From contig NC_089430.1 in the NCBI RefSeq assembly GCF_026210795.1, positions 3,720,001-3,784,000 on the forward strand: DNA of 64,000 nt, read 5' to 3'. Under the pieces are notes generated by a model. That model saw only the letters and a program-made list of their open reading frames with translations. It was not told where the DNA came from and did no database searches. Position 1 is the stretch's first letter. Each line of letters starts with the position of its first letter. Shown here piece after piece: positions 26,951-28,327 of this stretch. The DNA comes from Rhizophagus irregularis (taxonomy: Eukaryota). The translations under genes were made by a program, and so were the position numbers.

Positions 26951-28327
26951 TTATTTATTCTTTCTCAACTTCTTACTCAACTTCTTATTCAACTTCTTTC
27001 TTGCTTTTTCTTCTTTTGAAGCCATAATATTAGCCTTAGCCTCCAAAAGCATCTTCTCAAACCCTATCTCCTCCATGTGATTTTTGAATTCTTCATCCAA
27101 ACGACGTTCTTCTTCATTTACGGGTACCCTCTCATGAGTGTCTTCGATGACATAACACAACTTATCCGGATGTATTAGATAATTCTTGACTCCTTCTTCC
27201 AAGTCGGATCCCATATATATCAAACTATTCTCCATGTCATTCCACATATGCAAACATTTATCTTCATTTAAAAACCACATTACATATTCAGAACGGTCTA
27301 GATATAAAGGAAAAATTTCAGCGATTCCAAAGGTTTTAGCAAGACGTTCTCTAAAACTCGCATTAAGAAACCGCTGATTCTTTCGTTCCGTGAAGGCGTG
27401 AAGTTCATCCTTCAGTTGATCAAGAAGGTGACACGGGACATCTTGCAATTTAGGCAGGGATACTTCGCCGTTCCATCTGCTACGTCTATTGTGAGAGTCC
27501 GAATTGGAGTGTTGGGCCTTACTTGACTCAAGTGAGTCCATGCGTTCATTTCTGAACAATTGGCATGGTCCCAACGCTCTCGCCTTGCCATCACTTCCAG
27601 ATCCTGATTTCGTGGAAGGATATGTAAAGGGAAATTGGCCAGATCGGTACTCTGCCGAGACTTGACCATGTGTTTTCTGGGATTGCGTCTTCCCGCTATT
27701 GATGCTCCGAATGATACTGCGATTATCTGTTTGTGATTGACTTTCCAAGAGACATTTACAGATGTCGGGCACATCTCCCCCTGGTTTATAGGTTGTAGGA
27801 TGTTTATCCAATTTGTGATCTGGTTTAGGTGTTTGCGTAAAAACACCTTTGGCTTCATAAACTTTTTCGTTCTGCGCTTCCTTGTCTTCCTTTTGCTTGG
27901 AAGAGAATTCTTCGTAGATAGATAAAGTAAAAAGTCCCACACCGTAGTTAATGTTATCATCATAGACCCGAGTGTTCTTATCACTGAAATCGGGATTTGA
28001 TTGCGATCTACGGAGTAGATTGCGTTGTTGATTCTGATGTAGATCATCAAAGAGTATAAACGTTAATGCATGACTTTTTATAAGAAATAAACCCTTTGAG
28101 AAGTACCTGAAATGAAGAAAAAACGTATTGTAGAGATGCAGTTCTCCGCAATTTTGAGCCATTAAAAATATTTCTCTGCAAATCTAAAAAAAAATAATAT
28201 TTGTAAAGAAGCTTTTATTCATAAATTAGTAAACAAAAAAAAAGCTCTAAGACTTACTTCGTTCACCATCCATCTCTGTTTGAGACGAGGGTAGGGCATT
28301 GCAAGTGGGAAAAGTAGAGTTACTCAT
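26951..28327 (-). CDS. Predicted long isoform (about 409 aa): disordered N-terminal/linker region plus C-terminal SUKH/US22-like domain and basic tail
   Basis: Exon 1 28327-28258, intron GTAAGT..TTTAG (74 nt), exon 2 28183-28107, intron GTACTT..CATCAG (73 nt), exon 3 28033-26951, all in phase. The C-terminus FGIAEIFPLYLDRSEYVMWFLNEDKCLHMWNDMENSLIYMGSDLEEGVKNYL fits the SUKH beta-meander plus helix pattern. Confidence 0.65.
27412..27909 (-). CDS. Alternative-frame exon encoding a putative zinc-dependent nucleic-acid deaminase (CxE...PCxxC, YwqJ-like signature)
   Basis: The overlapping frame (track ORF 27412-28050) reads ...IIAVSFGASIAG...RRERWDHANCSEMNAWTHL...IRTLTIDVADGTAKYPCLNCK. It can be joined in phase to exons 1-3 by a 58-nt GTCTAT..GAAG intron (27967-27910), giving about 236 aa. 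Confidence 0.6.
   Translation of the reverse strand, partial: NSLPSKRKTRKRRTKKFMKPKVFLRKHLNQITNWINILQPINQGEMCPTSVNVSWKVNHKQIIAVSFGASIAGRRNPRKHMVKSRQSTDLANFPLHILPRNQDLEVMARRERWDHANCSEMNAWTHLSQVRPNTPIRTLTIDVADGTAKYPCLNCKMSRVTFLIN

Follow-up and report, generated by a model that had tools for sequence, protein, structure and literature searches.

A single spliced mRNA with two long ORFs, which overlap on the same strand and are both under selection, was identified on the minus strand of the Rhizophagus irregularis window (the whole 64,000-nt stretch of AT-rich fungal DNA that was analysed). That the locus is a real, conserved dual-coding gene is concluded with high confidence, and the assignment of a deaminase to frame A and of a SUKH-3-like domain to frame B with good confidence. 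The mRNA probably encodes a DNA cytosine deaminase toxin of the YwqJ type in frame A together with a SUKH-3-like blocker of this toxin in frame B. An earlier inspection of the letters alone (the sequence-only reading) had proposed a toxin-immunity pair within one transcription unit; the dual coding, the deaminase and the SUKH-type domain are all supported here, and the two partners are now named as YwqJ-like and SUKH-3-like.

Transcript structure and start codons

A three-exon minus-strand transcript was confirmed by PolyA RNA-seq (Table 1). The two clean upstream exons recognised earlier are bounded by introns that were both recovered from raw PolyA reads of runs X23 and X24, with 6 and 7 spliced reads, respectively, for intron 1 and 8 and 7 for intron 2, and the identical two joints are present in contigs of runs X4, X8, X3 and X7. 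None of the runs listed as matching the locus is indexed as RNA, and the expression evidence consists of these two raw-read runs, of each of which about a quarter was read (180 + 165 = 345 PolyA reads), the reads being low-depth and unstranded. As the 5' ends of the RNA contigs lie at 28403 (X4) and at 28510 at least (X8), the start site of transcription is not fixed.

No substitution or indel was listed when the RNA reads of runs X23 and X24 were placed on the locus. The DNA-like runs X15 and X16, either of which may be the source of the sequence, each gave a single contig across the stretch, with 0 and 1 difference, respectively. A frameshift or assembly error as the source of the two frames is excluded by the RNA reads together with the DNA-like contigs, and is excluded in the homologous locus L003 (see below) as well.

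Each frame has its own ATG, at 28327 for frame B and at 28299 for frame A, both with a purine at -3. A second conserved frame-A Met, at 28162 in exon 2 (M[AV]QxCGE), provides an alternative start for A.

Table 1. Features of the dual-coding locus (positions in the window).
Feature	Position	Strand	Description	Basis
Exon 1	28258..28403	-	5' UTR and first 70 coding nt of frame B, first 42 of frame A	RNA contigs
Frame-B start codons	28325..28336	-	ATG 28336 (weak context) and in-frame ATG 28327 (A at -3)	
Frame-A start codon	28297..28299	-	+1 frame, 28 nt downstream of ATG 28327	
Intron 1	28184..28257	-	74 nt, GT-AG	PolyA raw reads
Exon 2	28107..28183	-	77 nt, both frames open	
Intron 2	28034..28106	-	73 nt, GT-AG; unspliced RNA contigs exist as well	PolyA raw reads
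Exon 3	26816..28033	-	to the 3' end of RNA contigs (26816-26829)	RNA contigs
ORF A	27412..28299	-	spliced, 246 aa; predicted zinc-dependent YwqJ-like deaminase ending after the PCxxC helix	
ORF B	26951..28327	-	spliced, 409 aa; ~240-aa disordered extension over ORF A, SUKH-3-like domain, basic helical tail	
Basic stretch KRKTRKRRTKK in A	27862..27894	-		sequence
C199-x-E201 of A	27550..27558	-	predicted zinc ligand and catalytic glutamate	
C233-x-x-C236 of A	27445..27456	-	predicted zinc ligands	
Part of B aligning with C-terminal half of SUKH-3	27158..27352	-	helix, 4-strand meander, helix	

A single fused deaminase-SUKH protein, made by alternative splicing or by -1 ribosomal frameshifting with the open frames as a by-product, would account for the database gene models P0003, P0004, P0018, P0025, P0030, P0060 and P0067, which switch from A to B or back. 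Retention of intron 2, of which there are unspliced contigs, also carries the frame-A start into frame B, where it opens a 424-aa ORF with the SUKH-like domain at its end. However, only the two canonical joints were listed among the 345 reads (threshold of 3 reads), and the chimeric models switch at varying places and mostly lose the catalytic motifs. Nor would a fusion require frame B to remain open through 240 codons upstream, or both ATGs to be conserved. Since intron 2 is 68 nt in the homologous loci L002 and L003, the retention phase is not conserved. A fused product is judged very improbable, and intron-2 retention as a conserved toxin-to-antidote switch was ruled out by the different phase in these two loci.

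Both reading frames are maintained

In genomic DNA, the two same-strand frames are open from 28062 to 27412 (A) and from 28183 to 26951 (B). Both frames are open as the sequence-only reading had it, but the overlap is longer than the ~640 nt given there, which take in the exon-3 portion alone, and in the spliced mRNA it extends across all three exons and 246 codons of A. The third frame has 24 stops across the same span.

The codons of each protein were redrawn with the amino acid sequence fixed. With protein A fixed (1500 draws at each of three GC settings, for each of two loci), frame B acquired a mean of 13-20 stops and was never free of stops in the 1500 draws per setting, which bears out the earlier estimate that the second frame is unlikely to be open by chance. 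With protein B fixed, frame A was stop-free in at most 0.9% of draws.

Selection was assessed by permutation, the 191 changes observed between the window and L003 being re-placed randomly over the 735 aligned nt. Frame A has 53 synonymous codons as compared with 26.9 expected, a value that none of 3000 permutations reached, and no new stops (6.6 expected). The frame-B overlap likewise has no new stops (7.2 expected); its 21 synonymous codons, as compared with 27.1 expected, indicate no residue constraint on this part of B. In the B-only domain beyond the A stop, 17 synonymous codons were counted versus 10.4 expected (P 0.024), and the signal leaves A there. Taken together, the permutation and codon-redraw results indicate that the residues of A are under purifying selection, that the B overlap has only to stay open, and that the B domain is conserved.

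A single functional frame, with the other open by chance, codon bias or recent ancestry, would fit the annotation of frame B alone in databases, where frame A is nearly absent. Indeed, single-sequence searches gave 16 matches among 3028 candidates for frame B and one match among 47 candidates, a chimeric model, for frame A. However, the permutation and codon-redraw tests reject this explanation for either frame, and the catalytic motifs of A are conserved across a large family; a single functional frame is already largely refuted and can hardly be upheld. The annotation record instead agrees with the expectation that gene callers would annotate only one frame: the A family is missed because callers keep frame B, and a family of deaminases has thereby gone unrecorded.

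Homologous loci and distribution of the two frames

Four homologous loci, L001 to L004, were recovered from JGI sequences (4 of 195 pattern matches). The DNA-level proof of dual coding thus covers the window, one divergent clade (L002-L004) and one decayed copy (L001); as L002, L003 and L004 are nearly identical, they were counted as one comparison. In L002 and L003, with ~74% identical DNA, the intron positions, the 28-nt offset between the ATGs and the A stop are kept. Both frames are open in L003, which encodes a 245-aa A and carries a 1-nt insertion altering only the last residues of B, and in the partial locus L004. The expectation that paralogs keep both frames open holds for these two loci but not for the others: in L002, A is intact (247 aa) but there is one stop inside the B overlap, and L001 has three stops and has lost the catalytic Glu in A, with a further stop in the B domain and both splice donors mutated. 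The B overlap of L001 is without stops (0 versus 7.6 expected), and this order of decay fits a history in which the toxin would have died before the antidote.

Two frame-B ATGs lie upstream of the A start in the window, two in L001, one in L002 and two in L003, the additional upstream ATGs of L001 and L003 being in frame as in the window. Annotated homologs of frame B start with runs such as MKDMINM. Named homologs are from Rhizophagus irregularis (92% identity over 98% of the query), R. diaphanus, R. clarus, Glomus cerebriforme and Paraglomus brasilianum. The protein filed under the last species (P0014) is 59% identical to frame B, level with homologs from nearer genera, and horizontal movement between fungi or contamination is possible.

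The +1 frame of the annotated frame-B proteins (from R. diaphanus, R. clarus, Glomus, Paraglomus and JGI sources) permits both C-x-E and PCxxC in 10 of 11 cases, the exception, P0015, being the product of the decayed L001. When scored against a profile of 26 distant A homologs, the inferred +1 frame gave 5.8-20.3 bits, as compared with 3.8 bits for the best of 1380 shuffles, and of 69 proteins the profile listed 13 frame-B proteins only (P0002 and P0004-P0015); as the frame-B proteins are related to one another, these counts are not independent. The inferred +1 frame of the distant chimeric models P0048, P0060 and P0067 had no score on the A profile, and in P0060 only the PCxNC overlap is forced in +1. 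For the distant A paralogs (25-40%), comparison of the +1 frame gave no full upstream extension of B.

A profile search with A found 47 representatives at E<=0.001. Ten clusters of the A family were looked up, and the four that are named are all from Rhizophagus. The family is large and divergent, with many fragments and broken copies, among them P0023, which is without the last Cys. In runs X15 and X16, other contigs match short parts of the segment 26850-28450 at ~80%, which indicates further paralogs in the same species; one of these contigs resembles the P0018/P0030 subfamily.

Frame A product is a predicted deaminase

The NCSE motif of frame A is encoded at 27561-27550, PCLNC at 27459-27445 and the stop codon at 27414-27412. 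The motif positions, the fold model and the family profile agree with the initial description of frame A as deaminase-like and ending at 27412. In the family alignment, PT-x-N-V-S-W, FGAS, W-x-x-G-N-C-[AS]-E-x-N-x-W and PC-x-N-C are kept, and both C-x-E and PCxxC are conserved, as in zinc-dependent deaminases. The basic stretch of A (Table 1) resembles a nuclear localisation signal.

A structure model of A (pLDDT 79, pTM 0.77) predicts a zinc deaminase fold with a helix, strands and two zinc helices. In the VIA comparison with 48,161 chains, 11 of the top 15 are titled deaminases; as the best Z of 6.6 (rmsd 3.1, 97 aligned) is below the VIA caution line of 8, it is the consistency of the list that carries the fold result. 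The remaining four of the top 15 rows (ADAT2/3, ATIC, Msmeg3575 and ABE8e) presumably have the same fold. The best Foldseek rows for the A model are cytidine deaminases, at scores that are not significant, and alignment of A with cytidine deaminase motifs is weak (E 0.07), the family member P0033 matching TIGR01354 at E 0.0012.

The features tabulated for the YwqJ clade include Gx[CH]xE in helix 2 (PMC3239186), which is found as GNC[AS]E in the family and as ANCSE in the window copy. As judged by the model secondary structure and the alignment, the inserts of A and its end right after the PCxxC helix fit this clade (PMC3239186), the conserved His of the YwqJ-clade insert being only partly kept in the A family. 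A direct Pfam scan of both frames, with 12 and 37 alignment members, gave no match; this holds for PF14431 in the 37 members of the A alignment, with an Atlas lead at 0.88. The assignment of fold and family was borne out by the deaminases in VIA and by the SUKH-3 comparison of frame B described below, but not by direct Pfam matches for either frame. The NCBIfam scan and PDB sequence searches returned nothing useful. Against 12 mostly Streptomyces YwqJ domains, the A profile matched only at PCxxC (E 0.033), and nothing was obtained in global mode. Bacillus subtilis YwqJ deaminates cytidine in single-stranded DNA and is neutralised by its neighbour (10.64898/2026.09.29.755374), and by analogy A would deaminate C in single-stranded DNA.

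Searching 401 actinobacterial genomes with the A profile gave two weak matches at E<=0.05. One of the two, first picked by its motif (L032:2339-3403, minus strand), is a Streptomyces protein with a deaminase-like motif at its end that resembles that of frame A, and without a Pfam deaminase match; it is a lead only and is possibly, from its sequence, an unannotated toxin tip. No close relatives were found in viral contigs, plasmids or GTDB genomes searched by pattern. Searches did not find PF14431 in 301 genomes from the G004 phylum or PF14433 in 201 from the G005 phylum.

Frame B product has a probable SUKH-3-like domain

The B overlap had been described as a low-complexity S/Q/K linker. It is predicted to be disordered (exon-3 residues 1-190, pLDDT ~25), but its composition is only mildly biased (S 13%, Q 8%, K 7%). 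A SUKH-like domain had been placed right where A stops; the SUKH-3 match, over 62 columns, supports the domain, but order begins ~15 codons upstream of the A stop. After the disordered part, the B model, of moderate confidence, has two helices, four strands, a helix, a hairpin and a long basic helix.

The profile of the B domain matched 25 SUKH-3 proteins with an HH-align probability of 69% (E 4.3e-5), the score of 35.1 comparing with 17.6 for the best of 60 shuffles, and matched 12 SUKH-3 sequences at 44.5%; SUKH-3 family membership was confirmed for three of the reference proteins. No alignment was obtained with 30 SMI1/KNR4 proteins. The N-terminal half of SUKH-3 is unmatched by B. A full SUKH core consists of four helices and six strands with an N-terminal hairpin (PMC3113570), and the hairpin of the B model stands after, not before, the meander.

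Foldseek against the PDB listed no SUKH entry among the matches for the B model, and none of the matches was at E<=0.001, which does not exclude the fold; VIA likewise listed no SUKH entry, the best Z being 5.1, to PI3-kinases. In the viral library there was no match at E<=0.001, and one of 50 rows was named US22 while 11 of 50 were betaherpesvirus proteins. These 11 we take to be mostly of the US22 family. Viral US22 domains group with SUKH-3 (PMC3113570), which fits these rows for the B model. Atlas leads for B were US22 (0.90) and SMI1/KNR4 (0.86).

A bacterial toxin-immunity pair with the same layout

SUKH3 is given as the immunity partner of the YwqJ clade (PMC3239186). An actinobacterial RHS toxin, L196, has a C-terminal domain that matches the A profile (HH-align 93%, E 2.9e-7, 59 columns). 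The tip of L196 scored 20.6 bits on this profile, as compared with 7.0 for the best of 2000 shuffles and less than 2 bits for 14 other domains tested; it matches PF14431 at E 1.5e-5 with 25.6 bits, just under the cut-off of 25.9. A SUKH-3 gene lies directly behind the toxin gene, in the -1 frame and with a 4-nt overlap with the toxin stop, and L201 has the same layout. L196 was found upstream of one of 20 divergent SUKH-3 genes, three of which had an upstream deaminase motif; since the SUKH-3 gene was the reason for choosing this locus and a motif filter followed, the test on the A profile is only partly independent.

In the fungal locus, B is also in the -1 frame relative to A, and the order of toxin then immunity protein and the relative frame are as in L196 and L201. 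Taken by itself, the phase agreement between L196 and the fungal locus is a coin toss and is weak evidence. We infer that the fungal pair descends from a bacterial operon that had a toxin gene first and, behind it in the -1 frame, an immunity gene.

Both frames could be translated without B being an inhibitor of A, the truncated SUKH-like domain having another partner and the overlap co-regulating two genes. In favour of this, one half of SUKH-3 has no match in B, a stop in B is tolerated in L002, Atlas has large Mucoromycota clusters in which similar short domains stand alone, and eukaryotic and viral SUKH proteins do other jobs (PMC3113570). However, the two homologies reproduce the partners, the order and the relative frame of the bacterial pair, and a second frame of 246 codons is costly to keep open, so that such an unrelated function of B is regarded as improbable. 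In the preferred reading, B likely binds and blocks the predicted toxin A.

By eye, neither a signal peptide nor a delivery domain can be made out, and the exon-3 part of A has no Pfam or NCBIfam match, the other 40 residues being too short for an RHS or LXG domain. Since no delivery domain was recognised, the locus was not filed as a polymorphic toxin system; at most, its mode of action most likely resembles that of the toxin-immunity core of such a system.

Comparison with known systems

The bacterial pairs of YwqJ (PF14431) and SUKH-3 (PF14433), such as L196 and B. subtilis YwqJ-YwqK, share with the fungal locus G/A-x-C-x-E, PCxxC, the end after helix 3 and a SUKH-3-type frame behind the toxin in the -1 frame. 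In contrast to them, the fungal gene is spliced and eukaryotic, has no recognised RHS, LXG or other delivery domain, and has an immunity frame that starts upstream and overlaps the whole toxin; only the C-terminal half of SUKH-3 is recognisable in fungal B.

GNAS XL-alpha-s/ALEX is one transcript that gives two proteins from different starts, the second in the +1 frame, and the products are reported to bind each other (PMC1868773). The fungal locus likewise has one transcript with two start sites, the second in the +1 frame. However, XL-alpha-s and ALEX are signalling proteins, whereas the fungal products are a predicted enzyme and a putative inhibitor, the fungal overlap extends over three exons, and both products go back to a pair of bacterial genes.

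Like the wtf genes of fission yeast and the Spok spore killers, one locus would give both killer and protection, within a multicopy family that has decayed members. In wtf, poison and antidote are read in the same frame from alternative transcripts, and Spok is a single protein. The resemblance to wtf is one of function only.

Toxin-derived deaminases occur in fungi (PMC3482391) and have expanded there, with the YwqJ clade in basidiomycetes and the OTT_1508 clade, and a role in defence against non-self or selfish elements has been proposed (PMC3239186). For the fungal deaminases of these two clades, the accessible portion of PMC3239186 mentions no immunity partner or overlapping frame. The parts are thus known, namely the bacterial YwqJ/SUKH-3 pairs, the toxin-derived fungal deaminases and dual-coding transcripts, and the combination appears to be new: no report of a dual-frame toxin-antidote gene or of a deaminase-immunity pair in arbuscular mycorrhizal (AM) fungi was found in the literature searched, which took in few subscription papers, and the supplements of PMC3239186 and PMC3113570 may list fungal members. 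With A, the nucleic-acid deaminases would gain a new branch, one that probably has a natural inhibitor.

Proposed mechanism and role

The two start codons on one mRNA likely yield two proteins. Since a second cistron is out of reach for a eukaryotic ribosome that scans, the immunity frame would have been kept open farther and farther upstream, across all of the toxin gene, until it began with the first AUGs. The blocker would then be the product of most ribosomes and the toxin that of leaky scanners alone, so that an excess of antidote would be built in; beside leaky scanning, alternative transcription starts would be compatible with the low-depth, unstranded reads. Such overprinting of the first gene by an upstream extension of the second would give a eukaryote a route to keep a horizontally gained two-gene operon without polycistronic translation.

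The favoured role is in conflict between nuclei, or after hyphal fusion, in a shared cytoplasm, and this is the least certain step. The toxin would outlast the blocker with its long disordered leader and damage nuclei or spores that the blocker does not cover. The many paralogs, fragments and dead copies suggest a role in conflict. As read from its sequence, L002, with its stop in the B overlap and an intact A, speaks most clearly against the blocker being strictly required in cis; given its near identity to L003, this allele may have arisen recently, may be an error or may be compensated by a paralog.

Alternatively, the dual-coding pair may have been domesticated, with A as a defence or editing enzyme directed against transposons, mycoviruses or endobacteria and B as a regulatory safety catch, without killing of nuclei. 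The presence of the transcript in many runs, the high identity of A to its homologs and its purifying selection would agree with this, as would the roles against selfish elements proposed for fungal deaminases (PMC3239186) and the finding that inspection by eye shows neither a signal peptide nor a delivery domain. However, the 47 representatives, the fragments, the decayed L001 and the loss of the last Cys in P0023 point to birth and death, unlike a single housekeeping gene, and domestication is considered unlikely.

Returning to the conflict role, a broader picture can be offered tentatively, as a possibility of somewhat less than even weight. AM fungi may harbour a hidden, expanded family of self-protected DNA-deaminase toxins derived from whole bacterial toxin-immunity operons that were converted to dual-frame mRNAs, in which the antidote frame gains the first AUG by overprinting the entire toxin gene. 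In the coenocytic mycelium, such genes might serve as drivers at the level of nuclei or as killers of non-self, and mutation of the genome may be among their effects. They would be testable candidates for the means by which genetically distinct nuclei that share a cytoplasm in AM fungi compete or are rejected.

Neighbouring elements in the window

A non-coding, MITE-like element of ~920 nt (28516-29437), with 29-nt terminal inverted repeats that are 97% complementary, lies directly upstream of the gene, with some of the gene's RNA contigs extending to its edge. Farther upstream, a 64-nt inverted repeat (30047-30110 and 30421-30484; 86% complementary, 310 nt apart) is possibly another small mobile element. 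On the other side of the gene, a PIF/Harbinger-like transposon at 22902-25896 has 26-nt terminal inverted repeats with TAT on both sides; pieces of a DDE_Tnp_4 transposase are encoded on the plus strand (23750-24588), and a cluster of ORFs on the opposite strand has no Pfam match. The downstream neighbour gene (25800-26510, minus strand) looks broken, struck by the transposon. The database models P0004, P0016 and P0017 fuse this neighbour to frame B, and since R. diaphanus P0008 has the same downstream neighbour, the linkage is older than the species.
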